The position numbers were made by a program, and so were the translations under genes. The notes beneath the pieces were generated by a model, which did not search any database, was not told where the DNA came from, and saw only the letters and a program-made list of their open reading frames with translations. DNA of 64,000 bases from Elusimicrobiota bacterium. GTDB taxonomy: Bacteria > Elusimicrobiota > Elusimicrobia > Elusimicrobiales > UBA9959. Where the stretch lies: contig DMES01000037.1 in the NCBI GenBank assembly GCA_003450815.1, positions 831 to 64,830 on the forward strand, given 5' to 3'. Shown here piece by piece: positions 26,150-42,278 of this stretch (the stretch's first letter is position 1; every line of letters starts with the position of its first letter).

Positions 26150-26971
26150 TTATGGGAACGGGCAATATACCAGGCGGTCAACGCGCAGCTTCTTAAGTTC
26201 TTTTTCCGAAGAATAAAACTTATCGGGAAATTCAATAAACATTGTGTTCCCCCGTATCAGCAGTTTTTCCTTTATCCAGGGGTGGGTTACTTCGAACGCG
26301 CAGGCGCGGCATTCGCGGTCGCAGTCTATGCTGCGCACGGAATTGTCGGGCGCTATGTAGGGCATTCCAACCATGCATGTGCGGGTGGTGGTCAGGTTCA
26401 GGTAGGGATAGTAAAGCGTAAGGCTGAATTTTTTCGGGTTAAACCCATAGGCTCTGTCTCTGAAGTTGGTGCGGGGTCTGATGCCTATGGTTGAAAGTTC
26501 ATAGCGGTTTATACCGATTTTTGTGAAAAAGTCCAGCGCCAGCCGGTTGAGGACTCTGAGCTGGGTCCTTTTCAGCACGAAAATATTGTCGTAAAGCTGC
26601 CGCCCGATGTTTATCTTAAACGGCAGGTTTTCCCTCTCGGCCAGTTCAAGCGCGCCGAAGTCGTTGACGGTGATTTCAAGGTTGTTAATATCCAGTCGCC
26701 CCGCGCTGCGCAGTTTAATAAGTTTTTTGAAGACGGCGGTCAGACGCTTCAGTCCCTTTTCGCTTAAAAGCGGTGTTAGAAGGCAGACTTTTTTGCCTTT
26801 TTCCTGAAAGCGGACGATTTCCGAAACTACCGCGTTTTCCAGCAGATTTTCGCAAAATTCAGGCCCCAGATAAACCCAGTCAAAACGCTCCAGCAGATCT
26901 TTAAGCCTGCCGGAATTCTCCAGCTTGGAAAAGGAGAGGCTGCCCAGCCTTATGCCGTGTTCAATGCTCAT
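26150..26971 (-). CDS. U32-like partner protein (UbiV-like position), Cys cluster
   Basis: About 273 aa from ATG 26971. YLGPEFCENLL, ITVNDFGALELA and the Cys cluster TRTCMVG..CDRECRAC are paralogous to 41583..42278. It starts 2 nt after the upstream U32 stop. Confidence 0.6.
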   Translation of the reverse strand: MSIEHGIRLGSLSFSKLENSGRLKDLLERFDWVYLGPEFCENLLENAVVSEIVRFQEKGKKVCLLTPLLSEKGLKRLTAVFKKLIKLRSAGRLDINNLEITVNDFGALELAERENLPFKINIGRQLYDNIFVLKRTQLRVLNRLALDFFTKIGINRYELSTIGIRPRTNFRDRAYGFNPKKFSLTLYYPYLNLTTTRTCMVGMPYIAPDNSVRSIDCDRECRACAFEVTHPWIKEKLLIRGNTMFIEFPDKFYSSEKELKKLRVDRLVYCPFP

Positions 26972-26973
26972 AA

Positions 26974-27930
26974 TCAAAATTTGTTTCCGTCCCAGCCTGT
27001 CATTTTTTCAATAAAACAGGCCCGGGCGTCTTTGTGCGGAAGTGTTGTGGAAAACTTTTCCACCAGGTCAAGCATTGCGCGCAATTCCCGCACCTTTTTT
27101 ATTTTTATTTCACTCGCGTCCTGGCGGGTGCCGTATTTAAGGTAATTAACTCCCGCCGAAAAAAAATCAAAAAAAGAGGCGGCATTGGCCATTCTGGGCG
27201 CTCCGCCGCAGCCGAGCCTGACCGAGAGGCGTTTCATTACAGGGCCAAGACGCGGTTTCCAAGCCGGGTCCGTTTCAATACAACTGAGCGCCGGCAGTTT
27301 TTCAGCTTTGACATTCAGGCGGCACATGGAGCCGTCACGGATGGCGATATTTGGGGTGTAATGATCGGGGAAGTGCAGGTGGCAGCGGCCGTTCAGGTAA
27401 GCGCAGCCGAAAAAGCGGTAATCAAAAATTTCCGTTTCAACTTTGCGCGCGCGGCAAAGCTTTATGATTTCACGCGCTTCAAAAGGGGCCAGTTGATTCG
27501 GGAGTATCAGCCTTGAAACGCCCAGTTTTATAAAAAAACCGGCTGTCAGGCTGTTGAAACACGGTTGCACCGAACTAAGGTGCAGTTTAGCGCGCAACTG
27601 CGGCTTAAGTTTTGACAACAGGCTGAACATGGAGGGGCTTGCGGTTATAAACGCGTCCACGCCGGACGCGTCCGCCGCGGCCAGGCGTTTCAGCAGACCG
27701 GCTTCCTGTTTAAGTGTAAATTCGGGCGCTATGCCGTTAACCGCAAGTGAAAGTTTCATGCCCAGGCCATGTGCCGCGCGGACGGCGGTTTTAAGCGGAC
27801 CGATGCCAGTGAGAGCGGCGGGTTTACCGAAGTGAGGCAGAGTGGCGACGGCACAGTAAAGCTCGTCCGCCCCGGCTTGGGCCAAAGGCTTGATTTCTTC
27901 CAGATATGAAAAGCAGGAGACTATTTTCAT
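26974..27930 (-). CDS. peptidase-U32-family protein (RlhA/TrhP/UbiU-type fold)
   Basis: 318 aa. Has AGADELYC.., ..GVDAFITASP, ..RLILPNQLAPFEAREI, and the Cys cluster FFGCAYLNGRCH..MCRL. Confidence 0.7.
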   Translation of the reverse strand: MKIVSCFSYLEEIKPLAQAGADELYCAVATLPHFGKPAALTGIGPLKTAVRAAHGLGMKLSLAVNGIAPEFTLKQEAGLLKRLAAADASGVDAFITASPSMFSLLSKLKPQLRAKLHLSSVQPCFNSLTAGFFIKLGVSRLILPNQLAPFEAREIIKLCRARKVETEIFDYRFFGCAYLNGRCHLHFPDHYTPNIAIRDGSMCRLNVKAEKLPALSCIETDPAWKPRLGPVMKRLSVRLGCGGAPRMANAASFFDFFSAGVNYLKYGTRQDASEIKIKKVRELRAMLDLVEKFSTTLPHKDARACFIEKMTGWDGNKF

Positions 27931-28033
27931 ATGGAGAGATTGCAGTGATAAAACAACGATTGCGGTGATATGGCGGAGATCATAGTAATTTCTTAATCGC
28001 TGTCATCGCTTCCCCTATCACCGTAAGCTCCTC

Positions 28034-28954
28034 TTAAAATCTTTCGGGAGTTATGGAGAAAAGGTCTTTTTGTGAGGCCTTGAGTTCTCCGCCGCCGTGA
28101 ACTTTCAGGTAATCAGGCCTGGCCCCGCAGCACGCGGGCTTAAGGCTGCAGCGCGAACAGGCGGGCCGGCGCGCCTTTGGGGCTATGCCGTCTTCAAGCA
28201 CCCTGTCGCCGCGGCGCCAGCGCTGGAATTCAAAGGAAAACCCCTCAAATTTTTCCAGCGCGCAAAGCGGCATATTCTGCACCACCGCCTTGCGGCCTTT
28301 GAGCTTGAGGTTTGCGAGTGCCAGTTTGATAAACGGTGAAACCTGCGTATAGCGCGGCACTATTCCAGGGGCTTTGAGGGCTCTGCCTTTATTGCGCACA
28401 AAAGTAAAATTTACAAATGCGGCGCGCGGAAAATTTGCCGCCGTCCAGAGCGCGAACTCGGGCAGCTGGCGATAGTTTTCGCTTGAGATGATGTGGAAAA
28501 ACCGCAGCTTTTCCTCGGCGCCGGCGGCTTTAATGTTAGCAAGGCCTTTAAGGGCCATCTGGAATTTTATGCTGCGCGTTACTTTTGCGTAAATTTCAGC
28601 GCGGTGGGAGGGGAAGTTTACGGTAAAAAAATCGATATCAGCGGCCGCTTTCCGGCAAAAAGCGCGATCTGAGAGCGCCACGGCGTTTGTGGAAAGCATG
28701 AAATTTTTTACCCCCGCGGCTTTAAGCGCCTTTATCCAGTTAAAAAAATCCGTGCCGGCGGTGGGTTCGCCTCCGCCTTCAAGGCTTACGGCTTTCACCC
28801 CCGCGGTTTTTATCAGGGCGGCTGTTTTCAGGGGATCTTGTCTCTTTCCATCCGGAGGATTATGGCAGTAAAGGCAGTAGAGGTTGCAAGTGTGGGCCAT
28901 GCTGACACAGGCCTGTTCGCTTATCCATTTATTTTTTTGTCCACAGTTCGCCAT
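28034..28954 (-). CDS. radical SAM protein, compact family with C-terminal CX2CX5C
   Basis: 306 aa. Has CNLYCLYC, EGGGEPT, MPLCALEKFEGF, and the C-terminal CSRCSLKPACCGARPDYLKVHGGGEL. It is paralogous to seven genes in the 39.6-52 kb operon. Confidence 0.8.
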   Translation of the reverse strand: MANCGQKNKWISEQACVSMAHTCNLYCLYCHNPPDGKRQDPLKTAALIKTAGVKAVSLEGGGEPTAGTDFFNWIKALKAAGVKNFMLSTNAVALSDRAFCRKAAADIDFFTVNFPSHRAEIYAKVTRSIKFQMALKGLANIKAAGAEEKLRFFHIISSENYRQLPEFALWTAANFPRAAFVNFTFVRNKGRALKAPGIVPRYTQVSPFIKLALANLKLKGRKAVVQNMPLCALEKFEGFSFEFQRWRRGDRVLEDGIAPKARRPACSRCSLKPACCGARPDYLKVHGGGELKASQKDLFSITPERF

Positions 28955-29237
28955 ATTGCCGGGTTCATTATACCATTAAGAATTACCGTTGCGAATTGAA
29001 TAAGTGAACAGGACGAATATGATGATTCGCAGGTTCAATTCGTGATGTCCATTGTCATTCGCTTTGAGTATTGTTTCATTCAGCGGCCCCGGTGACAAGA
29101 CGCTGCTTGCCCCAGACACACCCGGAAAAATAGGTGGGACTTTAGACCCATAATATTATGGGTCTTTTGGCACTTACTTCCCCCAACTCCGCACATTATC
29201 ATATTATGGTGCACAAGCAGTCATAAAGGATAAAACA

Positions 29238-29804
29238 ATGAAAAAAACGAAAGCTGCGCTGCTCTCCCTGTCGGTCGTCTTGTTCTCGTCGGTGTTTTCT
29301 TTTTCCCAGCAGGTAAATGAAATCTCATCTCCTTCTCTGGACAATATCGCGTCCGAGGCGGCCTCCGCTTTCAGTCTGAGCGCAGAGCTCAATGTCCGGG
29401 AAAAACTTTCCGCCGGGCTCCCTCTGCCGCTGCCGGAAAACTCAGACAGGGCCCAGCAGTCGATCACTCCACTCATTGAGGACCCTCTGCGCGTCAAGTG
29501 TATCCTGAAACTCATAAATGATATTTATGCCGGCGTGCACCTGCCGTTCAAAGAGGACGGGCAGATATTTTCGAATAAGGAAAAAATCCTGCCGCCCCAG
29601 GCCGCCGGCTATTATCGTGAATATACGCTTATAGTGCCCACTCAGTATCCCGGCACTGTCGTGGTGGGCGGCGTTACCTACCAGGTCCCTCCGTCTCTGT
29701 CAAAGCGCGGCCCTGAGCGGATGGTTATAGGCGGAGGAAAGACGATTTATTACAGCCCGGACCACTACAAGAGTTTTATAGAAATACAGGTGGTGAATAG
29801 TTGA
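29238..29804 (+). CDS. secreted guanyl-specific ribonuclease (barnase / RNase Sa family)
   Basis: 188 aa. Signal peptide MKKTKAALLSLSVVLFSSVFSFS. The C-terminal domain carries YYREYTL, KRGPERMV and YYSPDHYKSF (catalytic Glu/Arg/His contexts). Confidence 0.8.
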   Translation: MKKTKAALLSLSVVLFSSVFSFSQQVNEISSPSLDNIASEAASAFSLSAELNVREKLSAGLPLPLPENSDRAQQSITPLIEDPLRVKCILKLINDIYAGVHLPFKEDGQIFSNKEKILPPQAAGYYREYTLIVPTQYPGTVVVGGVTYQVPPSLSKRGPERMVIGGGKTIYYSPDHYKSFIEIQVVNS

Positions 29805-30220
29805 TGGAGCCGCCGGCCTTCGCATTAACACAGGAGGCTGTTGTAAAACTTGACGGTCCGGTTGCAAAAGCCGGGGAGGTGGAAAAAATTTTCACCGACC
29901 TCGGCTTTTTCTTTTGCCGGGTTGATTGCGCGGGCCTGGGCGGCAAAGGGGAGTTTATAACGGCCGTGGGAACGGGTTTCGGTTTTAGCGGCGTGGACGC
30001 GCACAATTGGGATTCGCTTGAGGATTCTCTGGGCTCGCTGCCATGTTTCAGAAAAGCCGCCGGTTACGCCGCGGTTCTTTCAAATTTTTCAGGTCTGCCG
30101 CCTGGGGAGCTGGCGCTTTTTGAAGAAGTGGTCCGCGATGCGGCGGCCGCGCTTTGGAGAAATTACTCCCTTCGGCTGAAAGTCGTTTTACTGAAACCCG
30201 AAAAATCCAGCCGGAAATAA
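29804..30220 (+). CDS. barstar-family ribonuclease inhibitor
   Basis: Its ATG overlaps the RNase stop (TGATG). HNWDSLEDSLGSL matches the barstar NxDALWDxL core. Its position is that of an immunity gene. Confidence 0.7.
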   Translation: MEPPAFALTQEAVVKLDGPVAKAGEVEKIFTDLGFFFCRVDCAGLGGKGEFITAVGTGFGFSGVDAHNWDSLEDSLGSLPCFRKAAGYAAVLSNFSGLPPGELALFEEVVRDAAAALWRNYSLRLKVVLLKPEKSSRK

Positions 30221-30261
30221 ATTTCCCGGGCTGGGCTTGATGATTTACCGGATTGTTGTGG

Positions 30262-30397
30262 GTAAATATTCGGTGACCTTGTGTATCTTACACTGACCCT
30301 TGTTCGGTGTGTAGTGGCAGAGCTTGCTCTGCCAGCGGAAGAGGCAAAGCAAGCTTTGCCACTACAAGGGCAAATGACGGGTTCACCGAATATTTAC
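30262..30397. repeat. nested long palindrome (family P3)
   Basis: Outer arms are GTAAATATTCGGTGACC and GGGTTCACCGAATATTTAC. Inner arms are GTAGTGGCAGAGCTTGCTCTGCC (30311-30333) and GGCAAAGCAAGCTTTGCCACTAC (30343-30365). Each inner arm is itself a hairpin. Confidence 0.8.
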
Positions 30398-30464
30398 TGT
30401 TGTGGTGTGGGGCACAATTCAATAAACAAGTGTGAATTTTTCTATAGGCGGACAAGGAAATACC

Positions 30465-31274: not shown

Positions 31275-31481
31275 AGCGCTGAAGGCTGTGGTTACCGGAT
31301 TTTAGTACCATCCGACACCCCAGTTCTGACCTTGGTTTCCTTTTGATTTCCCCTGCTAACTTCCCCTTGTAAAATACGCCTTTATATATTAGACTATTAA
31401 AGCGCGCTGTGACCCGCATGGAAAAATCTGTACGGGTGGTTTTTTTGTTGAACTTTCCCCTGATAACAACAGGGGGACTTT

Positions 31482-32252
31482 ATGGCAAATAGAAAATTTG
31501 TGATTTTAAGACTTAAACTAACCAGAAAGAGCTGTCTTTTCGCCCTGACGCTCGCTTTCCTGTGTTTTCATCCGCGGCCACTTGGGTCGGAAACATTGAC
31601 GCTTACCACTTACTATCCGGCCCCTTATGGCGCCTATATCAGCCTGCTTACCACCCAGCAGACCCTGCTTGCCCGCGACGGCAGCAGCGTGGGTATAGGG
31701 ACATCGGGGCCTGTTCCCGCTAATATAAAGCTTTCGGTCCATTCCGGAACTACCCAAGGGAATATCTCAATCAGCGGCGTATCAGACAACGGCGCCACTT
31801 ATTCAAGTTTAACTCTAAATGACAATAATTTGGACAACAGGATAAATGCATGGGGGCTTGCCCATAAAAGGGCTCTTGGAACTGTGGAGGATAATGACTT
31901 CCAGATAGTGAGATGTAGAGGGGCTTGTGCGACACGTATGGATTTAGCTATTGACAATACCACCGGCAACGTCGGAATACAAACAAACAATCCAGCGTAT
32001 AAGTTCGATGTGTCAGGCGATGCCAGGGTGACTGGCGCCCTCAGAAGTCAGTGCACTGTCGTATGGTACTCCGGCACGACGTACTGCCCCGCCACCTATT
32101 CTTTTATGAGCAATTTGGGCGGTGGAGCCAGTTGCATTTCCGGTGGGCAATTGTTCCTTGGCGGAAATGTTAATACCCCGACTAGCTGGGTGCCGCATAG
32201 AGAAGAGAATTGTACCGGCAATATGCTTTGCTGCAGAGTACAAACAAACTAA
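31482..32252 (+). CDS. secreted/anchored protein with tail-fibre-like GNVGIxTNNP motif and Cys-rich C-terminus (paralogue 1)
   Basis: 256 aa. Has a hydrophobic N-terminus, TLTTYYPAPYGAY, IDNTTGNVGIQTNNPAYKFDVSGDARVTG, and 6 Cys in the last ~70 aa. Confidence 0.7.
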   Translation: MANRKFVILRLKLTRKSCLFALTLAFLCFHPRPLGSETLTLTTYYPAPYGAYISLLTTQQTLLARDGSSVGIGTSGPVPANIKLSVHSGTTQGNISISGVSDNGATYSSLTLNDNNLDNRINAWGLAHKRALGTVEDNDFQIVRCRGACATRMDLAIDNTTGNVGIQTNNPAYKFDVSGDARVTGALRSQCTVVWYSGTTYCPATYSFMSNLGGGASCISGGQLFLGGNVNTPTSWVPHREENCTGNMLCCRVQTN

Positions 32253-32312
32253 ACTGGCTTAAATGTAGGGGGGTTGTTATTGAGCTTTTCCCCGGCAATG
32301 ATAGGGGGCTTT

Positions 32313-33080
32313 ATGGAAAATGAACCATTTATAGTTTTAGAACTTGAATTGACCAGAAAGCGCTGCCTTTTCGCCCTGACGCTCGCTTTTCTGTGTTTCC
32401 ACCCGCGTCCGCTTGGGTCGGAAACACTGACGCTTACCACTTACTATCCGGCCCCTTACGGCGCCTATGTAAGCCTGCTTACCACCCAGCAGACCCTGCT
32501 GGCCCGCGACGGCGGCAGTGTGGGCATCGGGACATCGGGGCCTCTACCAGCGAATGTAAAGCTTTCGGTCCATTCCGGAACTACCCAAGGGAATATCTCT
32601 ATCAGCGGCGTATCAGATAGCGGCGCCACTTATTCAAGTTTGCAGTTGAATGACAATAATCTGGCAAGCACAAATGCCTGGGGAATTGCACATAAAAAGG
32701 CCCTTGGCACTGTGGAGGATAATGATTTTCAGATAGTAAAAGTTAATAATGGTGTCGCAACAGCTGCCAGACTTGCCATTGATAATACCACCGGCAATGT
32801 CGGTATAGGTACAAACAATCCATTGTATAGGTTCGATGTGTCAGGCGATGCCAGGGTGACTGGCGCCCTCAGAAGTCACTGCACTGTCGTATGGTACTCC
32901 GGCACGGCGTACTGCCCCGCCACCTACTCTTTTATGGGCAACCTGGGCGGCGGAGCCAGTTGTATTTCTGGCGGGCAATTGTTCCTTGGAGGAAATATTA
33001 ATTCCCCGACCAGATGGGTGCCGCATAGAGAAGAGAATTGTACCGGCAATATGCTTTGCTGCAGGATGCAAATAAATTGA
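32313..33080 (+). CDS. paralogue 2 of the tail-fibre-motif protein
   Basis: The start at ATG 32313 (MENEPF..) is placed by alignment with paralogue 1 and the AGGGGG SD. The N- and C-terminal thirds are near-identical to 31482..32252, while the middle diverges. Confidence 0.7.
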   Translation: MENEPFIVLELELTRKRCLFALTLAFLCFHPRPLGSETLTLTTYYPAPYGAYVSLLTTQQTLLARDGGSVGIGTSGPLPANVKLSVHSGTTQGNISISGVSDSGATYSSLQLNDNNLASTNAWGIAHKKALGTVEDNDFQIVKVNNGVATAARLAIDNTTGNVGIGTNNPLYRFDVSGDARVTGALRSHCTVVWYSGTAYCPATYSFMGNLGGGASCISGGQLFLGGNINSPTRWVPHREENCTGNMLCCRMQIN

Positions 33081-33296: not shown

Positions 33297-33785
33297 TTGA
33301 AAGAAAAAATATCAGTCAGCGTAAGTTTAAAAAGCTATAAGGCCGATACTATCCGCTACGCGGCTTATGCGGTGAGCGGGGGGGCCTATGTTTTGCTCGG
33401 GCCGGGAAAAAAAGGGGAAGTGGAGGCGGCTTTTGAACCCAAGCCGAATGCGTCCGCAAAATATCGCGCCGGCCTTCAGAAGCTTTTTGAGTCGGAGTTG
33501 AGGGACGAAAAAATGCGTTCTGAAATAGCTGATGCCAACAGGGAACTAAGGGAATTTATGGTTCTTAAAGCTCTTTCTGCCGCCGACGACGCGGGAACTC
33601 AGGCAGGCGATTATGCCGGGCTTACCCCCGCCCAGGAAAAGGAATTGGACGCGCTTATTGCCGAGGTTGAGCGCGAAATAAAAACCGAAACCGCCGGCAA
33701 AGAGCGTAAAGATCCGCTTGGCATAACCAAAACATGGGAAGAAAAACATGGCTCAGAACCTTTTAAAAATAAAAACAAAAAATAG
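33297..33785 (+). CDS. HxsD-like small protein with charged C-terminal extension
   Basis: TTG start with GAGGAGGA 9 nt upstream. The N-terminus ISVSVSLKSYKADTIRYAAYAVSGGAYVLL parallels 35196..35516. It overlaps the following HxsB-like gene by 38 nt. Confidence 0.55.
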   Translation: MKEKISVSVSLKSYKADTIRYAAYAVSGGAYVLLGPGKKGEVEAAFEPKPNASAKYRAGLQKLFESELRDEKMRSEIADANRELREFMVLKALSAADDAGTQAGDYAGLTPAQEKELDALIAEVEREIKTETAGKERKDPLGITKTWEEKHGSEPFKNKNKK

Positions 33786-35211
33786 TGTCGCGCAAACCAA
33801 TCCGCCGCATTTTTATTGGCGGGAAGTAGACGGGGCTTACCTCATAAGCAATGATTCCGGCTGCCATGCGTGGCTGGACGCGGCGGCTTTTAAGCGCTTT
33901 TCCGCCGGCACGCTCAGGGAAAAAGACAAAGCCTTTGAGGAGCTTTCTTCAAAAGGTTTTATCAGAGACAGGCTGGATTTCGCGGATTTGGCCGCAAAAT
34001 GGAAGAGCAAAAATTCCCACCTGTCCTGCGGGCCGGGGCTGCATATTTTTGTAATGACGCTGCGGTGTGACCATAAGTGCCTTTATTGCCAGTCAGGGGC
34101 CATAAGCCTGAGCGCCAAAGGCGCGGATATGAAATGGCCCGCGGCCAAAAAAAGCGTGGATTTCGCATTTCAGACCACCGCTCCCGGCCTGACTATTGAG
34201 TTTCAGGGCGGCGAGCCGCTGCTTAACTGGGCGGTCCTTAAAAAAACCGTTTCCTACGCCAGGAAAAAAGAAAAGCTTTCGGGTAAACGCCTTAATCTTG
34301 GCCTTGTTTCAAATTTCAGCCGGATGACCGAAGGGTATGCCCGGTTTCTGCTTGAAAACGAGGTTTCCCTCTGCACCTCGCTTGACGGCCCGGCTGACCT
34401 GCACAACAGAAACAGAATTTGCTCCGGCGGCAATGCCCACGTGTCGGTACGCAAATGGCTAAGGTATTTCACGCGCAGGAACACCGGGCAGGGAGCCGGG
34501 TACAGGATTTTCAAGCCCAGCGCTCTGCTTACGGTCACCAAGTTTTCGCTGGGCCGTGCGCCCGAGATAATTGATGAATATGCCGGGCTTGGGCTTGAGG
34601 ATGTCTTTATACGGCCGCTTTCGCCAATCGGTTACGCTAAAAACAGCTGGAGCGCCATAGGCTATACGGCCGCGGATTTTGTGGCTTTCTACAAAGAAAG
34701 TCTTGGATATATACTGAAACTGAACCGTAAGGGCGCCGTTATAAGGGAAAAAATGGCCGCCATGCTCCTTGAAAAGATAATCGGTTTCAGTGACCCCGGG
34801 TATCTGGACATGCGGTGTCCCTGCGGCGCCGCGGTGGGGCAGATAGCTTACAACTACAACGGAGATCTTTACACCTGCGATGAGGGCCGCATGGCGGCCT
34901 GGGAGGGGGACGATCTTTTTAAAATAGGCAATGTGTTCAGGGACAGTTATAAAAAAGCCGTTTCCTGCTCCACCGCCAGGTCATGCGTGGCCGCTTCCGA
35001 GCTGCATTTACAGCCGGCGTGCTCAAGGTGCGCTTACAGCCCTTATTGCGGTGTTTGCCCCGTGTATAACTACGAAGCGCAGGGCTCGTTGTGGGGCAAT
35101 ATGCCCGCAAACGAGAGATGCGCTTTCATGAAAGGCATATTCGGTATTCTGTTTTCCAAACTAAAAAATTCCAAAGACAGGGAGATACTGCAAAAATGGG
35201 TGAAAAAGTGA
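33748..35211 (+). CDS. radical SAM/SPASM peptide maturase, HxsB-like (copy 1)
   Basis: 487 aa. It has an ~100-aa N-terminal extension (..YLISNDSGCHAWLDAAAFKRF..), CDHKCLYC, EFQGGEPLLN, and a SPASM-type C-terminus CPCGAA..YNYNGDLYTCDEG..ACSRCAYSPYCGVCPVYN. Confidence 0.7.
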   Translation: MAQNLLKIKTKNSVAQTNPPHFYWREVDGAYLISNDSGCHAWLDAAAFKRFSAGTLREKDKAFEELSSKGFIRDRLDFADLAAKWKSKNSHLSCGPGLHIFVMTLRCDHKCLYCQSGAISLSAKGADMKWPAAKKSVDFAFQTTAPGLTIEFQGGEPLLNWAVLKKTVSYARKKEKLSGKRLNLGLVSNFSRMTEGYARFLLENEVSLCTSLDGPADLHNRNRICSGGNAHVSVRKWLRYFTRRNTGQGAGYRIFKPSALLTVTKFSLGRAPEIIDEYAGLGLEDVFIRPLSPIGYAKNSWSAIGYTAADFVAFYKESLGYILKLNRKGAVIREKMAAMLLEKIIGFSDPGYLDMRCPCGAAVGQIAYNYNGDLYTCDEGRMAAWEGDDLFKIGNVFRDSYKKAVSCSTARSCVAASELHLQPACSRCAYSPYCGVCPVYNYEAQGSLWGNMPANERCAFMKGIFGILFSKLKNSKDREILQKWVKK

Positions 35212-35516
35212 AAAGTCATTCGCGTAGAATTATGTTCTCTAAACAAATATACGCGGCCGAAGCGGTTAAACTTGCGGCTTATGTTTTTTCAGACAAAGCC
35301 GATATAAAATTAGCATCCTCCGCCGGCGGCGTCGAGGCTGAAGTGTCCTGGGAAGGGAAGGATTGCGCGGTCGCCGGAGAATTTGCGAACGAGGTTCTTA
35401 ACCAGCAATGCCGGCTTGATCTGGCCGTGAAAAATGGAAAGGTCGCAAACATGATAGTTACCAAGGCCTTGCTTTCCGCTTCCGGTGAAACAGTGAAAAA
35501 GAGGGGGAAACAGTGA
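35196..35516 (+). CDS. HxsD-like small protein (copy 2)
   Basis: About 106 aa. ..FSKQIYAAEAVKLAAYVFSDKADIKL.. resembles 33297..33785. It overlaps the upstream stop. The start is uncertain (35196, 35208 or 35232). Confidence 0.5.
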   Translation: MGEKVKSHSRRIMFSKQIYAAEAVKLAAYVFSDKADIKLASSAGGVEAEVSWEGKDCAVAGEFANEVLNQQCRLDLAVKNGKVANMIVTKALLSASGETVKKRGKQ

Positions 35517-36529
35517 AAAAGTGGACTGTTCTTGTTTTTATAGCGCTTTTGGGGCTTATACTTGGCCTGCGTTATCTGAGTAAAAAGAATGAGGCAAAAG
35601 TGGAACAGAACGCAGGCATGCAGCTGTCCGAACCGGTGGGGGTTGCTCTGCCGCAGGGGGTGAATACCTACTCTCCATCAGGCTCTGTGGCGTCTTCTCC
35701 CGCAGACTCTTCCGCCCTGGATGCGGCCGCTTCCAAAGGGGCTTGTGAGGGCGGCGCTCTTAACGACATACTGTCTTCGCACGGAGTGTCATGGGGTTAT
35801 TCTACAAAAGGCGTTGTTTTTGAACCGTCTGAAACTGAAAAGATCTATGAGGCTTTGGAAAATTATTTTTCCTGCGAGGCTGTCGCCATGGACGATATGG
35901 CTGCATGTGGGCCCTTAACGACCGATTCGGGTGATAAAGGCGATGTGCGTTTCAGTAATCCAAGATATAAATGTTCCGATAGCGCGAACAGGGTGCTGTT
36001 CAAGGCCTATATGGCGGGGATGCACGGCAATGCTTCGGCTTGTGCGTCATTTCTTGCAGGCGATAGTGTCAAGGACATCAAGTTGGATACTGTTGAGTTT
36101 TGCAATATAGCCGCAAAGGGGATGGAGAATATCTGTGTCGGCCTTGCTCCCTTTCTTCCGGCCTCAAAAAAAGCGGAATGCCTGACGGTTTTTCCAGCTA
36201 AAAAAACCGACTGTAGCGGCAAAGAATTCTGTCTGGATAATTACAAAATATATTCCGCCATCAAGGCCAGAAATCCGGGCCAGTGCCCTGAGAAGTACCG
36301 GCCCGCTTGTGAAGCTTTCTTCTCTAAGCGTCAGGCTTCCTGTTCAAATCTCATCACGAAGGCCAGTAAACTGTATTGCTCATCCCTTGCCGTGTTAAAA
36401 AAGAAACAAGCCAGCGGCATGTTTTTGTCTGAGCAAGAAAAGAAAGATGCCGAAATACGGAAAAAGGAAGAGGAAAGAATAATGCAGGAAGTAAATAAAA
36501 ATGCGAGGAAAATGCTGGGTAAGGAGTGA
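35513..36529 (+). CDS. membrane-anchored cysteine-rich protein, hypothetical
   Basis: GTG start overlaps the previous stop (GTGA) and has GAGGGGG upstream. It has one N-terminal TM helix. I count 14 Cys. The tail is Lys/Glu-rich. Confidence 0.65.
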   Translation: MKKWTVLVFIALLGLILGLRYLSKKNEAKVEQNAGMQLSEPVGVALPQGVNTYSPSGSVASSPADSSALDAAASKGACEGGALNDILSSHGVSWGYSTKGVVFEPSETEKIYEALENYFSCEAVAMDDMAACGPLTTDSGDKGDVRFSNPRYKCSDSANRVLFKAYMAGMHGNASACASFLAGDSVKDIKLDTVEFCNIAAKGMENICVGLAPFLPASKKAECLTVFPAKKTDCSGKEFCLDNYKIYSAIKARNPGQCPEKYRPACEAFFSKRQASCSNLITKASKLYCSSLAVLKKKQASGMFLSEQEKKDAEIRKKEEERIMQEVNKNARKMLGKE

Positions 36530-36536
36530 AAATTTT

Positions 36537-36869
36537 ATGGCTCAAAAAAAATCCAAGCTTAAAAAAAATATAAAAATGTTCCTTAACAGCGAAGAAGGTA
36601 AAATGCTGGATGCCGATATTGTTAAAACCGGCATCGCCTTGGGTATTATGGGCGCGGTCATGGCGGATCAGGCTGCGGCTCAGGCCGTTGTACATTCAAA
36701 CTATTTTTTTAATTCAGGCCCAGGCAGTGGTTCAGGCCATGCCAGCCACCAGAGCCACGGTTCGCACGGTTCGCACGGTTCGCACGGCTCACACGCCTCG
36801 CACGGTTCGCACGGTTCGCACGGTTCGCACGGTTCGCATGGCTCGCACTCGCGCGGCGGCTGGTGCTGA
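36537..36869 (+). CDS. His-Xaa-Ser repeat peptide (HxsA-like candidate precursor)
   Basis: AAGGAG is 9 nt upstream of ATG 36537. It is 110 aa: [21 protein letters not shown] / [29 protein letters not shown] / ..GPGSGSG / HAS HQS (HGS)4 HAS (HGS)5 HSR / GGWC. Confidence 0.8.
36738..36854 (+). repeat. 9-bp tandem repeat (CACGGTTCG and variants) encoding the His-Xaa-Ser triplets
   Basis: Read directly. There are 12 full 9-nt units plus a terminal CAC TCG CGC. Most units are identical at the nucleotide level. Confidence 0.95.
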
Positions 36870-36927
36870 TGCTTTTTTCCGGCGCTTTGCTCTTGTTTGA
36901 ATAGCTGATGGATGTTTAAAAAATCCG

Positions 36928-37056
36928 ATGGCGCAGACGTATGTGTGGCGCCATAACGAGTGGAAAGGCGGTCGTCTGGCGGCTCAGTACGCTGTCAAAA
37001 ACGGCTTTAAATTGGAAAGCCTTATATCTTACAATTATCCCCCCCGCATCTTTTGA
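36928..37056 (+). CDS. candidate 42-aa small ORF coupled to the following radical SAM gene
   Basis: Below the track's size cutoff. [42 protein letters not shown]. Its TGA abuts ATG 37057 (TGAATG), and 37057 has no SD of its own. The sORF has no SD either. Confidence 0.3.
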
Positions 37057-38157
37057 ATGAAAGTTCCAAAAGAAATACAGAAACTGAAAATAGCGCTCAC
37101 AACGGATTGCGTTCTTGCCTGCCGGCACTGTCGGGTGGACAAAAAGGCCGGACTCACTATAAGTTTAGACGACGCTGCCCGTGGAGTGGATATGCTGATT
37201 TCCTCTCCCGGGAAATTGAAACGTCTTGAACTTTATGGAGGTGAGCCGTTTCTTAAATTCCGGCTGTTTAAGGATATCGTGCAATACGCCGTAAGGCTTT
37301 CGGCGCGGTCCTGCAAAAAACTTTCAATTTCAGCGGCCTCAAACGGGCTTGTGCTGAATGAAGACCACCTGAAGTTTATCAGGGAAAACCGTGTTAATCT
37401 CTCCATAAGCATTTCCGGCTCGGAGAAGGCTCATGACCTGACACGCGTTTATCCCGGAGGCGGTGGAAGCTACGCCGACCTCAAAAAAAAGCTGGCGCTT
37501 ATCTTCTCCCGGCTTGAGGCTGAAAATATTGTGGCGCTTGAATGCGTACATCCGGCCTGTGCCGCGTCGCTTGGACCCGATTTGCGCCGCTTGGCCGACT
37601 TTGGTTTTAAAGTGATAAATATAGAATGTGTGCACGGGCCTGATTGGGGGCAAAGCTCTCTTAAGGCATTTGAAAGTGCCCTCCTTTCTTTCTCGGGCCG
37701 GCTTTTTACGGCAGTTAAAAAAGGCGTTTACATAGCGCCGGAGCCGTTTCTGGAATTTTTTCGGGTAAAAGGCGCGGCTGCCAGTCTTCAATGTCCTCTT
37801 TACAGAGATCTTGAGCTTTATCCCGACGGTGTTTTTTCTTTTTATCCGTTTGCCTTTATGGATTATTCTAAATGGCGAAAAGCGGTTAAACTAGGAACCT
37901 CCATTTCCGGACTTTGCAGGAGGTATTCGGCCTGTATACCTGGTGGAAAATTGTGCGCCGGCTGCGTCAGTAAATATTATGTGATCGGAGGACTTGCCGG
38001 CGGAGCGCGTGCCTATACCCTTAGAACGGCGGTGCTTAAAAAAGTGCTTCTGGATATAATGCGGCGTGCCCGCACAGAAAAGGCCTTTAACGGGTATGTG
38101 CGCTGGCTTGCAGGCATTGAGCAAAGAACCTATGTCGATTACCGTGGAATGAAGTGA
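37057..38157 (+). CDS. radical SAM protein with auxiliary-cluster (SPASM/twitch-like) C-terminus
   Basis: 366 aa. Has CVLACRHC, LYGGEPFL, and later Cys motifs CPLY..PDGVFSFYP and CRRYSACIPGGKLCAGC. Confidence 0.75.
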   Translation: MKVPKEIQKLKIALTTDCVLACRHCRVDKKAGLTISLDDAARGVDMLISSPGKLKRLELYGGEPFLKFRLFKDIVQYAVRLSARSCKKLSISAASNGLVLNEDHLKFIRENRVNLSISISGSEKAHDLTRVYPGGGGSYADLKKKLALIFSRLEAENIVALECVHPACAASLGPDLRRLADFGFKVINIECVHGPDWGQSSLKAFESALLSFSGRLFTAVKKGVYIAPEPFLEFFRVKGAAASLQCPLYRDLELYPDGVFSFYPFAFMDYSKWRKAVKLGTSISGLCRRYSACIPGGKLCAGCVSKYYVIGGLAGGARAYTLRTAVLKKVLLDIMRRARTEKAFNGYVRWLAGIEQRTYVDYRGMK

Positions 38158-38220
38158 ATGCCGCAAACGGCGGGTTGCAGGATGTCTCAAAAATAAAAAA
38201 AATCTTTTCCATTGAAATAT

Positions 38221-39624
38221 ATGAAAAAACCATTCATAGCATCGTACAATTTCAATTTTGTAAAAAAAGGCCGAAATATTTTAATTTCAAACGAGTTCGG
38301 CGGCTGGAGTCTTATAGGTGAGGCTGATTTTAAAAAATTGGCCGCCGGAAGGCTTTTACACGGCAGTTTAGCGCGTGAGCTTTCCGAAAAGGGGTTTGCG
38401 GCCAACCGCATGGATATGAAAGGCATGGCATTAGGGCTCTCCAAAACGCTGTTTGGTGGTTGGAAAGGGCCGCACGTACATATAATTTCGCTCACACAGC
38501 GTTGCAACCAAGCCTGCGCGTATTGCTGCGCCTCAGCGGGTCACGGCGGCGGCGGCATGAGCCGTAAGACCGCGGCCAAAACCCTTGATTTTATTTTTTC
38601 CATCCCCTGCGGGGACCTGGTTATGGAATTTCAGGGTGGAGAGCCGCTGCTTAATTTCAGCGTTCTGCGGTTCATGGTGAACTCGGCGCGGCGCCGCGCC
38701 GTTGCGCAAGGCCGAAGGGTTCATTTCTCAGTGGTCACAAACCTTACCGCCATGACCGCGGCAAAGCTGGAATTTTTGGTTTTAAACGGTGTTACAATCT
38801 GCACCTCCCTTGACGGGCCCGCTTCCCTGCACGACGCGAACCGCAGATTGGCCGGGCGCGGGACACACGCGCTGGTAACCGCCTGGCTTAAAAAAACAAG
38901 AGTTGCGGCAAAGAAATACCCAGGGTTTGAGCCGCCGAACGCAATCAGCACTATAACGCGCGCTTCGCTGGCGCAGCCCGAGCGTATAGTGGACGAGTTT
39001 ATCAGGCAGGGCATACGCCGCGTGCAACTTGGGCCGCTGGATCCGTTGGGACGCGCCGCCGGCGGCTGGGGCGCGCTGGGTTTTTCCGCCGCGGAATTTC
39101 TGGCTTTTTATTCACGGGCGCTGGATTACATGCTGGCGCTTAACCGCCGCGGTAATCCGGTTTATGAGAAAGGCGCGGTTATGTTCTTAAAGGAAATATT
39201 CGGATTCGGGCGGCCGCGCTACCAGAACCTGGATATTTTTTACCGTCTCGCTTACAATATAGACGGCGGAGTTTACGGGTCGGACGAGGCCCGGATGCTG
39301 GCCAACTCCGGAGACGACTCCTTCCGCCTTGGCAGTGTGCAGCGGGATAGTTTTAAGAGGCTTATAAAAAAACCGACTACCAGGCTGCTGCTGCTTTCGG
39401 CCTTTCCGCAGCTTACCCAGAGCGCCTGCGCCCGCTGTCCATATTCGGTCTGGTGTCGTGTAAGCCCTGCTCATAACTGGGCCGCGCAGGGTTCCTTCTG
39501 GGGAGATATGATGACCAGCCAGCGCTGTGCGATTTTTAAAGGGGTGTTTGACCTGCTTTTATCCAGGCTGAGTGATCGCGCCGCCGGGCCTGTCCTGCGG
39601 CATTGGTCGGAGTTTGAGCCTTAA
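38221..39624 (+). CDS. radical SAM/SPASM peptide maturase, HxsB-like (copy 2)
   Basis: MKKPFIASYNFNFVKKGRNILISNEFGGWSLIGEADFKKL.., CNQACAYC, EFQGGEPLLN, ..ACARCPYSVWC. The track's start at 38212 is TTG, so ATG 38221 is preferred. Confidence 0.7.
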   Translation: MKKPFIASYNFNFVKKGRNILISNEFGGWSLIGEADFKKLAAGRLLHGSLARELSEKGFAANRMDMKGMALGLSKTLFGGWKGPHVHIISLTQRCNQACAYCCASAGHGGGGMSRKTAAKTLDFIFSIPCGDLVMEFQGGEPLLNFSVLRFMVNSARRRAVAQGRRVHFSVVTNLTAMTAAKLEFLVLNGVTICTSLDGPASLHDANRRLAGRGTHALVTAWLKKTRVAAKKYPGFEPPNAISTITRASLAQPERIVDEFIRQGIRRVQLGPLDPLGRAAGGWGALGFSAAEFLAFYSRALDYMLALNRRGNPVYEKGAVMFLKEIFGFGRPRYQNLDIFYRLAYNIDGGVYGSDEARMLANSGDDSFRLGSVQRDSFKRLIKKPTTRLLLLSAFPQLTQSACARCPYSVWCRVSPAHNWAAQGSFWGDMMTSQRCAIFKGVFDLLLSRLSDRAAGPVLRHWSEFEP

Positions 39625-39636
39625 ATTCCCGTCACT

Positions 39637-40680
39637 ATGATAAAATCTAGGTATATGAAGGCAAAAGCTCTTTCCTACAGGCAGGCTGCGGCGCGTTTCG
39701 GCTGGCCGGCAGGGCGGATGAAAATTTGCGAACTAACGCTCGGCTACTCCTGTAACGCCCGCTGCGTGTTCTGCTACAGTTCGCCGGAGCTTGAAAACTG
39801 GAAAGAGCGTCCGTCCATGGATTTAAGGCGGGCGGGGGAGCATTTGCTGGCTTCCTATAAAAATGGCGCCCGCATGCTACAGATTATAGGCGGCGAGCCC
39901 ACCATAAACGAAGACCTTCCCCGCGTAATAAGTCTGGCCAAACGCACAGGTTACCTGGCGGTGCAGATAGTGTCAAATGGCCTTAAGCTTGCGGACGAGG
40001 ATTTTGTTAAAACGCTTGTAAAATCAGGCTTGAATACCGCCAATCTTTCTATCCACGGCCCTGACCGCGTCACCCACGACGCGGTAGTGGGGGTTGAGGG
40101 GGCTTTTGAAAGCACTCTTAAAGCGGCGCGCAATTTAATAGATGCCGGGGTTTACATCAACACCGGCACAGCCGTCACAGGCATTAATTACCGTAAAATT
40201 CCGGCCCTGGCCGCTTTTGTTCTGCGTGAGCTGGGAGTGGATTCCTGCCACATTATAGCCGCGCATTACCTTGGAGCGGCCTTCAAAAGGCGCAGGGCCC
40301 TGCGTGTTACTTACACTGAACAGATGCCGTATATTAAGAAGGCTGTGGCGGCCTTCCGCTTGGCGTATGTGAGGCCGGCTTTCGCTTTCCTAAGCAATTA
40401 TCTGCCCTGTGTGCTGCCCGGCTACGAGGCCCTGATGGGCGACTGGAAGTATCCTGAGGCTGACGACGACCTGTATCTGCCGGAAGCCAGTCACGAAGGA
40501 CGGATGTACACGATGATAACCGAAACTCTGCGCATGAAGTCTCCTTACTGCAAGCGGTGTGTTTATTGTGGCGTCTGCGCCGGTTTTGAAAAAACATATT
40601 TTGAAATGTTTGGCGGCGGGGAATTTGTTCCGCTTCTTGAGAAACCGGATGTTTACCCACTGAAGCCGGTGTGCGTATGA
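39637..40680 (+). CDS. radical SAM protein, compact CX2CX5C family
   Basis: 347 aa. Has CNARCVFC, IIGGEPT, LPCVLPGYEALM, and the C-terminal CKRCVYCGVCAGFEKTYFEMFGGGEFVP. Confidence 0.8.
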   Translation: MIKSRYMKAKALSYRQAAARFGWPAGRMKICELTLGYSCNARCVFCYSSPELENWKERPSMDLRRAGEHLLASYKNGARMLQIIGGEPTINEDLPRVISLAKRTGYLAVQIVSNGLKLADEDFVKTLVKSGLNTANLSIHGPDRVTHDAVVGVEGAFESTLKAARNLIDAGVYINTGTAVTGINYRKIPALAAFVLRELGVDSCHIIAAHYLGAAFKRRRALRVTYTEQMPYIKKAVAAFRLAYVRPAFAFLSNYLPCVLPGYEALMGDWKYPEADDDLYLPEASHEGRMYTMITETLRMKSPYCKRCVYCGVCAGFEKTYFEMFGGGEFVPLLEKPDVYPLKPVCV

Positions 40681-40736
40681 GTTGTACTAGGGTGAAATTT
40701 CTTCTTAATTTTTACCGGTCAGGCGTGATCTGAAGT

Positions 40737-41582
40737 ATGAAAATGCAGGTGGGGATAGGCTCTTTCAGGGAATTGGATTACTTTCTGGCCGCGGGCGCCG
40801 GGGAGTTCTACTGCGGCCTTGATAAAATACCAAGCCATGTTGAGGGCGCGTGTAATTTCGGGAGTTTGGACGATATCCTGACGGCCGCAAGGCTGGTCCA
40901 TGCCGCAGGCGGAAAAATGTTTTTTGCCGCCAACGAGGTTCATGCTTCTCTGCTGGAAGAGACCGGGTGCGTTATAAGAGAACTGGCGAACGGCGGCATA
41001 GACGGCGTGATAATAAAAGATCTAGCCCTGCTGGACCTGCTTAAGCGCCGCGGCATTAAGACCGCTTATATTCTCAGCACTCTTTCATGCTGCATGAACG
41101 CCGCCACGCTGGCCGTTTACCGCGGATACGGGGTTAAGCGGCTCGCTCTGCCCGAGCAGCTTAACCCGGCCGAAACCCGCGAACTGGTGTGTAATTCCTG
41201 GGGTATAGTCTCCGAGGTCTTTCTGAAAGCTCGGGAATGCTGCAGGAATTTCAACGGCCTCTGTTTCCTGGACTGCCACGGAAAACAATCCAACACCTGC
41301 GGGAAGAGCTTCCGCCGTGAAGGCGGCGGTGTTTTTCGGATGCCGGGCTTTTCCCCGGAGGAACATATGGCCCAGCTGCATGACTATTACCATATGGGCG
41401 TGGGAGTGCTGAAAGTGGGGCGCTCTCCCAGACCCGAAACCTCGCGGCTGGTTTTTAAGGAGGCGCTGCTGCTTCTGGATCTATTGAAATCAGGTTTGGG
41501 CCGTAAAGCCTTTACAGGTGAAGCCTTGCGCGTACATACTGTCTTTGACAAGGCTTATCGTCACCTTATAGAGAGAGTCTGA
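40737..41582 (+). CDS. peptidase-U32-family protein
   Basis: 281 aa. Has AGAGEFYCG, GIDGVIIKDLALL, RLALPEQLNPAETREL, and the Cys cluster ECCRNFNGLCFLDCHG..TCG. It is paralogous to 26974..27930. Confidence 0.7.
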   Translation: MKMQVGIGSFRELDYFLAAGAGEFYCGLDKIPSHVEGACNFGSLDDILTAARLVHAAGGKMFFAANEVHASLLEETGCVIRELANGGIDGVIIKDLALLDLLKRRGIKTAYILSTLSCCMNAATLAVYRGYGVKRLALPEQLNPAETRELVCNSWGIVSEVFLKARECCRNFNGLCFLDCHGKQSNTCGKSFRREGGGVFRMPGFSPEEHMAQLHDYYHMGVGVLKVGRSPRPETSRLVFKEALLLLDLLKSGLGRKAFTGEALRVHTVFDKAYRHLIERV

Positions 41583-42278
41583 ATGGAATTAGCCGTGCTG
41601 CTTACTCCCGAAGAGGCCCGCGCCGCGGGCCCCGGCTTGTTTAAAAGGTATTCCAGGGCTTATGTCGGAAGCGGGTTCTGCCAGAACCTCCTGCCGGAAG
41701 CGCGGGATATAGGCATGCTTCATTCAAAAGGCGCTAAAACCATTACACTGGCAACTCCGCTGTTTACCGGCGCCGGCCTGAAAAAATTCGAAAAAATCCT
41801 GAAAGCGGTGCTGGAAACGGAAAAAAGGATTGAGGTTTCGGTAAATGATTTGGGTTTGCTGGCCTTGCTGCGACGGCGCTACCGCGCGCGGGTGACGCCG
41901 CTGCTCGGCAGGCCGGTCTCGCATGATTATCTCCGCATGGAGCCGTCTTTTTTGAAACGGTTTTTGCGGTATTACGGCGTGAAATACCTTGAAAGCGACG
42001 AAAATTCCATGGTGCGCAATCTTCCGGCTTCGTCAAAACTGGCAGTGTCTTTTCATTACCCGCTTGCCTGCCTAGCCATGAGCCGTTTTTGCCCGCACGA
42101 GGGCCGTATGGACGACAGTTGCGCTCGGTCCTGCGCGGTAGGCCCTGTAAAACTGGAAGACGCCTGCGGAGAACAGCTGATTTTAAAGAACGGCGCGTAT
42201 TTTGCAGGGAATACGCCCTGCCGTCACAAGGCTGTAAAGCGTCTGGTTTACGCTCCGGGCGGTTCACTTAAGCTTTAG
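41583..42278 (+). CDS. U32-like partner protein
   Basis: 231 aa. Its ATG directly abuts the upstream stop. YVGSGFCQNLLPE, VSVNDLGLLALL and the Cys cluster SRFCPHEG..DSCARSC are paralogous to 26150..26971. Confidence 0.6.
   Translation: MELAVLLTPEEARAAGPGLFKRYSRAYVGSGFCQNLLPEARDIGMLHSKGAKTITLATPLFTGAGLKKFEKILKAVLETEKRIEVSVNDLGLLALLRRRYRARVTPLLGRPVSHDYLRMEPSFLKRFLRYYGVKYLESDENSMVRNLPASSKLAVSFHYPLACLAMSRFCPHEGRMDDSCARSCAVGPVKLEDACGEQLILKNGAYFAGNTPCRHKAVKRLVYAPGGSLKL

Follow-up and report, generated by a model that had tools for sequence, protein, structure and literature searches.

The window considered here, a 64,000-nucleotide stretch of contig DMES01000037.1 from an Elusimicrobiota bacterium, carries two gene pairs, A and B, each encoding a U32-family protein and a shorter partner. 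We hold with high confidence that the two are UbiU/UbiV-like iron-sulfur (Fe-S) pairs and that both belong to a single conserved Elusimicrobia locus for peptide maturation (~26150-51140, ~24 genes). That their chemistry is peptide hydroxylation is a question on which the evidence is about evenly balanced. A gene for a compact radical S-adenosylmethionine (rSAM) enzyme lies upstream of each pair, and an initial annotation, made from the letters of the window, had taken the six genes for a duplicated three-gene module. The U32-partner pair was indeed duplicated, but the rSAM gene was not part of the duplicated unit. The six genes are the following:

26150..26971, minus strand: partner A, predicted UbiV-like Fe-S TIM-barrel protein, 273 residues (alternative TTG start at 26977)
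26974..27930, minus strand: U32 A, predicted U32-family Fe-S protein, 318 residues (PF01136, 48.0 bits)
28034..28954, minus strand: rSAM A, compact HxsC-like radical SAM enzyme, 306 residues (PF04055 match)
39637..40680, plus strand: rSAM B, compact HxsC/HxsC4-like rSAM, 347 residues (PF04055, 70 bits; HxsC4, 98.6 bits)
40737..41582, plus strand: U32 B, predicted U32-family Fe-S protein, 281 residues (PF01136, 47.8 bits)
41583..42278, plus strand: partner B, predicted UbiV-like Fe-S protein, 231 residues

Two paralogous gene pairs

All six open reading frames (ORFs) of the initial annotation are present, and every motif that it quoted is found in the translations. The spacing of 0-2 nucleotides (nt) that it gave for the U32/partner junctions also holds: the gap is 2 nt in pair A, or a 4 nt overlap if partner A begins at the alternative TTG at 26977, and 0 nt in pair B. 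The genes of each pair are translationally coupled. BLASTP aligns U32 A with U32 B (28% identity across 186 residues, E 2e-16), partner A with partner B (33% across 80 residues, E 6e-10) and rSAM A with rSAM B (22%, E 5e-15). At the level of family profiles, partners A and B match from end to end (hhalign 99.8%, E 1e-27), hence the similarity between A and B is real. Judged from these comparisons of sequences and profiles, paralogy of the A and B members is far beyond chance; U32 A and U32 B are specific paralogues of each other, and so are the two partners.

The partners form a cryptic UbiV-like family

A PF01136 search retrieves both U32 proteins above the gathering cut-off (22.4 bits) but neither partner, and partners A and B have no match at all in Pfam or NCBIfam. 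Partner A possesses four invariant cysteines, C40, C199, C217 and C221 (C199-X17-C217-X3-C221), and partner B has C33, C170, C180 and C184 (C170-X9-C180-X3-C184, or CXnCX9CX3C). The four positions are invariant in 70 diverse representatives of the family, which also have invariant G, E, D and G positions in common; among 69 genomic copies the four Cys reach 99-100% conservation. The [4Fe-4S] cluster of UbiV has been found experimentally to be bound via a CXnCX12CX3C motif whose first Cys is located far upstream (PMC6747719). The partners display a motif of this type, with a middle spacing of X9-X17 instead of X12.

Profile comparison points in the same direction. In hhalign, the profile of partner A aligns with E. 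coli UbiV (88%, E 3e-6, 199 columns), a suggestive result obtained with a single-sequence template, and this alignment places partner A C40 opposite UbiV C39; the same profile gives no hhalign match to E. coli UbiU. A combined partner profile matches the local U32 profile (hhalign 93.5%, E 2e-7). The AlphaFold2 (AF2) model of partner A (predicted local distance difference test score, pLDDT, of 87.9) is a (β/α)8 barrel followed by a C-terminal β domain that holds three of the four Cys. Foldseek searches with this model return TIM barrels only, and 5d88, the one solved U32 structure, has the top target-normalised template modelling (TM) score, 0.48, among the listed hits. The AF2 model of U32 B (pLDDT 89.1) is likewise a TIM barrel and superimposes on 5d88 with TM scores of 0.48/0.53 and a root mean square deviation of 3.2 Å. 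The resemblance of partner A to 5d88 is thus comparable to that of a protein that Pfam does recognize, being only slightly better for U32 B. The initial annotation had expected the partner to model as a U32-like TIM barrel; the confident barrel obtained here bears this out, and the identification of the partner as a cryptic UbiV-like protein of U32 fold is supported.

A word-indexed search finds relatives of partner A in ~100 clusters at 90% identity and those of partner B in 9 clusters, all of them unannotated and of Elusimicrobia origin. An exhaustive profile search enlarges the family to 1,806 representative clusters at E <= 1e-3 (1,211 at E <= 1e-10), from Elusimicrobia, Omnitrophota, Undinarchaeota, Nanoarchaeota, Clostridia and Proteobacteria. 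PF01136 does not match 69 of the 70 representatives and matches the last one weakly, and cluster look-ups give family members almost no name other than “hypothetical protein”. Two of the 70 match Pfam methyltransferase families and appear to be fusions. The one named as such is a Nanoarchaeota protein of 489 residues (P0259, “class I SAM-dependent methyltransferase” at its source), a candidate partner-methyltransferase fusion; the second (P0265, 481 residues) is presumed to be another by its length alone. Searches of Protein Data Bank sequences with the partner profile and with U32 A return chance-level matches only, and the plasmid and phage collections contain no partner relative.

The U32 subunits are a distinct subfamily

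U32 A and U32 B match the N-terminal half of the PF01136 profile only. Each contains three near-invariant cysteines, C176, C183 and C203 in U32 A (CX6CX19C) and C169, C176 and C188 in U32 B (CX6CX11C), and each of the three positions is 99% conserved among 69 sequences. The four-Cys motif of U32 Fe-S oxidases (of the CX6CX15CX3/4C type) is not fully conserved in either. The expected conservation of four Fe-S cysteines therefore applies to the partner, but the U32 protein has three.

The best NCBIfam matches of both proteins are UbiU, followed by TrhP, at about a tenth of the cut-offs. For UbiU (NF047963), U32 A scores 45.6 bits and U32 B 40.9 bits, and the cut-off is 440. The description of the pairs as UbiU/V-like is retained in the sense of likeness to UbiU and UbiV, but not in the sense of orthology: on these scores, the U32 proteins of the window are a distinct U32 subfamily and not UbiU orthologues. 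Relatives of U32 B fall into 35 clusters, all from Elusimicrobia.

The pair, not the triad, was duplicated

In a collection of species-representative genomes, 78 loci with partner relatives were located and annotated with hidden Markov models built from the window proteins; related loci are designated below by L numbers. U32-partner pairs were chosen by an adjacency window of -60 to +200 nt, and by this selection the two genes are adjacent in U32-partner order in 75 of 75 pairs. The betaproteobacterial pairs described below are adjacent too, in the opposite order. Distance matrices correlate strongly between U32 and partner (r = 0.93, 69 pairs), between rSAM and U32 (r = 0.92) and between rSAM and partner (r = 0.88), and none of 2000 permutations reached the observed values. 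Adjacency, translational coupling and co-evolution of the U32 and partner genes, all read from sequence, fit the assembly of each pair as a UbiU/UbiV-like heterodimer.

In neighbour-joining trees of U32, partner and rSAM, the A clade is separated from the B clade by non-Elusimicrobia sequences. The U32-partner pair was duplicated, and anciently so. The rSAMs have a different history. The window encodes seven compact HxsC-like rSAMs, and rSAM A is equidistant from all the others (47-64 bits), while rSAM B scores higher with those at 49878, 43315 and 42315 (117-140 bits) than with rSAM A (60 bits). rSAM A itself matches the HxsC family TIGR03977 at 67.5 bits, below the cut-off, and harbors a CX3CX2C motif together with conserved C-terminal cysteines (C231, C266, C269 and C275).

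An rSAM gene is located immediately upstream of 28 of 34 A-type pairs, and is the rSAM A orthologue wherever orthology was checked. Of the 16 B-type pairs, an rSAM adjoins only 7, and these rSAMs are of differing kinds: in L035 and L036 the rSAM B orthologue follows HxsB2, four genes away from U32 B, in L075 and L058 U32 B is preceded by other rSAMs, and in L062 by none. As 12 of the ~24 genes of the locus encode rSAMs, chance alone would be expected to place one upstream of a U32 gene. Since rSAM A is no nearer to rSAM B than to the other compact rSAMs, and since the rSAM next to pair B is variable or missing, it is the pair and not the triad that was duplicated. Triad A is a genuine, conserved and co-evolving rSAM-U32-partner unit. 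“Triad B” is a juxtaposition, in which rSAM B is the conserved partner of HxsB2 and not of U32 B. Duplication of the two triads as one unit is rejected by the rSAM distances and by the placement of the rSAM B orthologues, and the notion of a cognate rSAM survives for pair A but not for pair B.

In an Elusimicrobiales metagenome-assembled genome (MAG), a single protein of 593 residues comprises an rSAM and a B-type U32 protein (L001:8774-10555). It carries little weight as Rosetta-stone evidence: one base at a TGATG junction separates it from the unfused L007:8776-10559, it comes from one MAG, and the fusion may be an assembly error.

An Hxs-like locus surrounds both pairs

Besides the six genes listed above, the locus comprises the following elements:

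28967..28995, minus strand: promoter-like site upstream of triad A (TTCGCA-17-TATAAT, extended TG, 10/12; a consensus match only)
29238-29804, plus strand: barnase-like ribonuclease (PF00545)
29801-30220, plus strand: barstar-like inhibitor (PF01337)
31482..33080, plus strand: two unassigned proteins of 256 and 268 residues, apparent paralogues (shared faint, non-significant match)
33297..33785, plus strand: HxsD-like protein 1 (TIGR03976, 38.5 bits, cut-off 50), conserved upstream of HxsB1
33748..35211, plus strand: HxsB1 rSAM/SPASM maturase (TIGR03978, 468 bits, cut-off 370)
35091..35516, plus strand: HxsD-like protein 2 (TIGR03976, 44.8 bits, cut-off 50)
35513..36529, plus strand: Cys-rich protein of 338 residues with an N-terminal hydrophobic segment, without family match, conserved in related loci
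36501..36869, plus strand: HxsA4-type precursor (NF038313, 56.6 bits, cut-off 55), probable start at 36537 (MAQKK...)
37057..38157, plus strand: PapB-like rSAM
38212..39624, plus strand: HxsB2 rSAM/SPASM-type maturase (TIGR03978, 354 bits, just under the cut-off of 370)
42315-43220, plus strand: compact rSAM, HxsC4-like
43315-44250, plus strand: compact rSAM
44247..45671, plus strand: HxsB3 rSAM/SPASM maturase (TIGR03978, 445 bits, cut-off 370)
45804..46691, plus strand: HxsC-like rSAM (TIGR03977, 154 bits, cut-off 267.9)
46688..47839, plus strand: polytopic membrane protein akin to A24 (prepilin-type) aspartic peptidases, a candidate for leader removal
47836-48765, plus strand: rSAM, HxsC4-like
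48766-49839, plus strand: rSAM, PapB-like
49878-51140, plus strand: rSAM

The 12 rSAM genes encode three HxsB-like and several HxsC/HxsC4-like proteins, the best HxsC4 score being 152 bits against a cut-off of 500. The HxsA4-type precursor is formed by a leader, a hydrophobic segment and a long run of (HGS)n repeats, and it ends in ...SRGGWC; Pfam detects no peptidoglycan-binding domain in it. The assignment of the A24-like protein passes through its relative in L001 (4923-6143; 34% identity, E 4e-70), which matches PF01478 (30 bits, cut-off 26.5). Pair B is inside the operon, with gaps of 0-56 nt to its neighbours, and a hairpin lies downstream of triad A. Housekeeping genes flank the locus: BamA, OmpH and LpxD at one end, a SufS-like desulfurase and genes of amino-acid metabolism at the other. 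No SCP2 (UbiT), ubi or men gene occurs among the annotated neighbours (19909-63971), and the only PADLOC result is a generic similarity to rSAM/viperin.

The whole locus, including both pairs and HxsA4-type precursors, is kept in many Elusimicrobia genomes, with shuffled gene order. In a first arrangement, triad A is divergent from HxsD-HxsB as in the window (at least 8 genomes: L015, L016, L017, L020, L021, L024, L027 and L030). In a second, everything is on one strand and pairs A and B are in tandem (5 genomes: L001, L007, L035, L036 and L037). The minus-strand copy had been described as standing alone while possibly acting on the same substrate; given this recurrent linkage, together with its own promoter-like site and hairpin, triad A is rather an integral part of the same system.

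Orthologous HxsA4-type precursors are found in L010, L014, L035, L036, L049, L052 and L062. They are of two C-terminal types, ...HSRGGWC and ...HGSY, and their leader is conserved as KKNI(K/R)MFL(S/N)SEEGKM.D.D..KTG.ALGI. The Trp-Cys at the end of the first type recalls cofactors with a Cys-Trp cross-link. Barnase orthologues occur at the same position, between triad A and HxsD/HxsB, in L015, L016, L017, L020, L021, L024, L030 and L062, and a barstar-like inhibitor is detected in part of these loci, which suggests that barnase and barstar are a toxin/immunity component of the system. The 256- and 268-residue proteins have no family match; orthologues of the latter adjoin HxsD in 9 related loci. 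In L003 (7063-16837; also in L004 and L025), an A-type pair without rSAM is followed by a FabD-like protein and a polyketide synthase (PKS)-like protein of 2196 residues (KS-AT-ACP-KR).

Relatives in other phyla

The order rSAM-U32-partner is also found in a gammaproteobacterial MAG (L039), in Undinarchaeota (L040 and L043), in Omnitrophota (L046) and in a hydrothermal-vent MAG (L055). In the Undinarchaeota, which belong to DPANN, the triad rSAM bears an N-terminal zinc ribbon (PF23545; L040:7626-10816 and L043:6218-9600), and the same genomes hold extra U32-partner pairs without rSAM (L041, L042 and L050). In L039, a gene of the 3-deoxy-D-arabino-heptulosonate 7-phosphate (DAHP) synthase family lies directly 3' of the partner gene (9950-11476; PF00793, 192 bits). 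DAHP synthase starts the shikimate pathway, which leads to prephenate; this neighbour is only a hint, as the same Pfam family covers 3-deoxy-D-manno-octulosonate 8-phosphate (KDO8P) synthase. An Omnitrophota single-cell genome (L045:8391-17081) combines a U32-partner pair with a PqqD-like protein, three rSAMs, an ATP-binding cassette (ABC) exporter and two small ORFs of 79 and 83 residues that are mutually related in appearance (MPRKLKFKPSVSRVKLYYEQAVLSCSCYD... and MSRKPKFRPRLTRIKLNPEQAVLTCACYD...). It is a different cluster, like those that make peptides synthesized on ribosomes and modified after translation (RiPPs).

A further group comprises 21 betaproteobacterial loci with the order partner-U32, from Thauera, Aromatoleum, Azoarcus and other Rhodocyclaceae, one Pseudomonas jinjuensis and one Burkholderiaceae. 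The motif of their U32 protein, CX6CX13CX40C, is UbiU-like, and their partner retains all four Cys. In at least 12 of the 21 loci, no more than a few kb separate the pair from the quinohemoprotein amine dehydrogenase genes qhpA, qhpD (rSAM/SPASM), qhpC and qhpB. In L066 (9764-19171) each of these four genes scores far above its NCBIfam cut-off; the other linked loci are L060, L061, L063, L067, L071, L072, L077, L078, L080, L083 and L085. The linked loci also carry an ExaC-like aldehyde dehydrogenase. To form cysteine tryptophylquinone, a Trp of QhpC must be dihydroxylated; the enzyme known to do so, QhpG, is a flavoprotein that depends on O2 and works in complex with QhpC and QhpD (PMC7876137). 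A crude scan within +/-10 kb of the pair in the 21 loci finds no ORF with an N-terminal motif binding flavin adenine dinucleotide (FAD) as a QhpG candidate, and the genome may encode QhpG elsewhere. By analogy, the partner-U32 pair may take the place of QhpG in tryptophylquinone biogenesis, without a need for O2. The linkage is circumstantial, and it provides a second, independent case of the pair where an O2-free peptide hydroxylase would be needed. The searchable literature, outside which most subscription journals lie, contains no link between quinohemoprotein amine dehydrogenase (QHNDH) and U32 proteins.

Proposed function and alternatives

The best explanation overall, to which we assign an even chance, is that the pairs are heterodimeric Fe-S enzymes oxidising an rSAM-processed peptide. 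Each pair would assemble as a UbiU-UbiV-like heterodimer with [4Fe-4S] clusters, and the heterodimer would oxidise the rSAM-processed (HGS)n peptide in a step that does not require O2. The likeliest step would be the hydroxylation of an aromatic side chain, either the imidazole of His or a Tyr or Trp near the C-terminus, with an organic oxygen donor such as prephenate. Pair A would work with its own dedicated compact rSAM, and pair B without one. Aromatic hydroxylation is proposed because genetic or isotope-labelling evidence links all characterised U32 Fe-S enzymes (UbiU/V, TrhP and RlhA) to the hydroxylation of aromatic or heteroaromatic rings without O2; prephenate is the oxygen donor of UbiU/V (PMC10990095, PMC11574389).

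A wider proposal is possible, if on balance doubtful. U32 subunits with UbiV-like partners, often joined by a compact rSAM, would be a widespread class, unrecognised until now, of O2-independent and probably prephenate-dependent hydroxylases of ribosomal peptides and proteins: one branch would serve as an anaerobic QhpG substitute in denitrifying Rhodocyclales, and two would decorate the HxsA4-type (HGS)n peptides of Elusimicrobia.

Several points weigh against peptide oxidation by these pairs. The function ascribed to the family rests on sequence, structural models and gene context, and as neither subunit reaches an equivalog cut-off, function is not transferable by orthology. No fourth universally conserved U32 Cys was found in the 69 genomic copies, the best candidates being conserved at 58-59%, and the U32 cluster may therefore differ from that of UbiU. 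The mirror-tree correlation is partly shared species history. Some A-type pairs lie far from Hxs genes or have no rSAM, being next to a PKS (L003 and L025) or isolated (L005, L006 and L022). The argument drawn from qhp is an analogy, and QhpG could lie elsewhere in those genomes. To our knowledge, the known U32 hydroxylases need no rSAM partner. Lastly, the only characterised Hxs system, that of E. coli, has no U32 protein, and the mass shift reported for it is +8 Da, not +16 Da (PMC13128918).

This +8 Da shift, described as being of the +C/-4H type and not an oxygen insertion, also favors a different Fe-S chemistry on the same peptide, which we consider unlikely though worth serious attention: for example dehydration or dehydroxylation of the Ser residues of the repeat at a site-differentiated [4Fe-4S] cluster, as in IspH or serine dehydratase, or the completion of an rSAM-made cross-link by two-electron oxidation. 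Three universal Cys, as in the U32 subunit, are typical where a cluster leaves an iron open for substrate binding, His and Ser predominate in the substrate, and a catalytic role of U32 clusters is not yet established in the literature. Every U32 enzyme with a known role has nevertheless been linked to hydroxylation, and the qhp-linked relatives are placed where a Trp hydroxylase is needed.

The full TIM barrel with its invariant G, E, D, N and R positions looks like an active site, which speaks against the pairs being redox or accessory modules, such as electron donors or acceptors or cluster carriers for the rSAMs, instead of peptide catalysts. The presence of two divergent paralogous pairs per locus argues for substrate specificity, and some pairs have no rSAM nearby. 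We rate an accessory role as decidedly unlikely, while noting that the locus combines 12 multi-cluster rSAMs with no ferredoxin or flavodoxin among its annotated genes, that the pairs recurrently adjoin rSAMs in several phyla, and that the UbiU and UbiV clusters have themselves been proposed to transfer electrons.

It is improbable that the pairs are housekeeping hydroxylases of RNA, quinones or lipids, located near the peptide cluster by coincidence. The A-type pair is very widespread in Elusimicrobia (~100 clusters) and at times lies away from Hxs genes, beside FtsJ/tRNA methyltransferase genes (L006) or a PKS (L003), as a housekeeping enzyme might. The linkage of both pairs to the locus, however, survives extensive gene shuffling, which weakens such a role; pair B is embedded in the operon, relatives outside Elusimicrobia are also found in rSAM/peptide contexts, and neither subunit comes near the RlhA, TrhP or UbiU cut-offs.

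Removal of the precursor leader by the U32 proteins is the least probable function, despite the name of PF01136 (“Peptidase family U32”) and the N-terminal processing that is part of E. coli HxsA maturation, since a conserved A24-like membrane aspartic peptidase is already present in the locus, the conserved Fe-S Cys patterns point to a redox enzyme, and the literature now questions whether U32 proteins are active as peptidases.

Significance

The initial annotation considered that U32 pairs inside a RiPP-like cluster would be new; indeed, no paper in the searchable literature connects U32 proteins with peptide clusters of the RiPP or rSAM kind. The enzyme class itself was already known; the novelty lies in its peptide/rSAM context, a large UbiV-like family without a model in the searched copies of Pfam and NCBIfam, the conserved rSAM-U32-partner triad and the association with the qhp genes. 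U32 Fe-S “oxidases” are a recently recognized answer to the problem of hydroxylation without O2. We know of quinone and RNA only as U32 substrates, and of most U32 subfamilies as uncharacterised. The locus and its relatives point to ribosomal peptides as a third substrate class, and triad A is a conserved unit of three genes that can be expressed directly for tests. The qhp-linked relatives bear on the making of the tryptophylquinone cofactor under anoxic, denitrifying conditions. The Hxs-type systems have only just been described, as an antiphage defence of four genes, and the present locus with its 12 rSAMs shows that much more elaborate relatives of them exist.

Comparison with known systems

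The U32 RNA hydroxylases TrhP (TrhP1-P2) and RlhA have the PF01136 core and Fe-S dependence in common with the window U32 proteins. The latter score 28-37 bits against 534, are devoid of RNA-related domains and occur in another context.

The canonical HXS system, HxsD-HxsB-HxsC-HxsA, is a four-gene antiphage defence of Gammaproteobacteria without U32, and more than 99% of the described HXS systems have four genes (PMC13128918). The window resembles it by its HxsB rSAM/SPASM proteins (two above the TIGR03978 cut-off), HxsC-like rSAMs, HxsD-like proteins and His-Xaa-Ser repeat precursor. It differs by its 12 rSAMs, two U32 pairs, A24-like peptidase, Cys-rich protein and barnase/barstar, and by a precursor that is a short (HGS)n peptide; its HxsC- and HxsD-like proteins fall below the cut-offs, and its genes do not follow the four-gene D-B-C-A layout.

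The QhpG-QhpD-QhpC complex offers a functional analogy, that of a hydroxylase acting on a ribosomal peptide held by an rSAM/SPASM maturase (PMC7876137). QhpG is an O2-dependent FAD monooxygenase unrelated to the U32 pair in sequence or fold, and the connection between the two comes from gene neighbourhood only.

The closest counterpart is UbiU-UbiV (E. coli YhbU/YhbV), the O2-independent, prephenate-dependent hydroxylase of ubiquinone biosynthesis. The window partners differ in being undetected by PF01136, and the window U32 proteins in having three universal Cys instead of four; the context is an rSAM peptide-maturation locus and not quinone synthesis, and pair A has a dedicated rSAM. Most Elusimicrobia are anaerobic, and the host of the window is presumably an anaerobe as well. 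The two systems are alike in their two adjacent genes, one for a U32 protein and one for a shorter, divergent U32-like protein, in the UbiV-type Cys pattern of the partner, in the CX6C start of the UbiU motif in the U32 protein, and in the TIM barrels predicted for both subunits.

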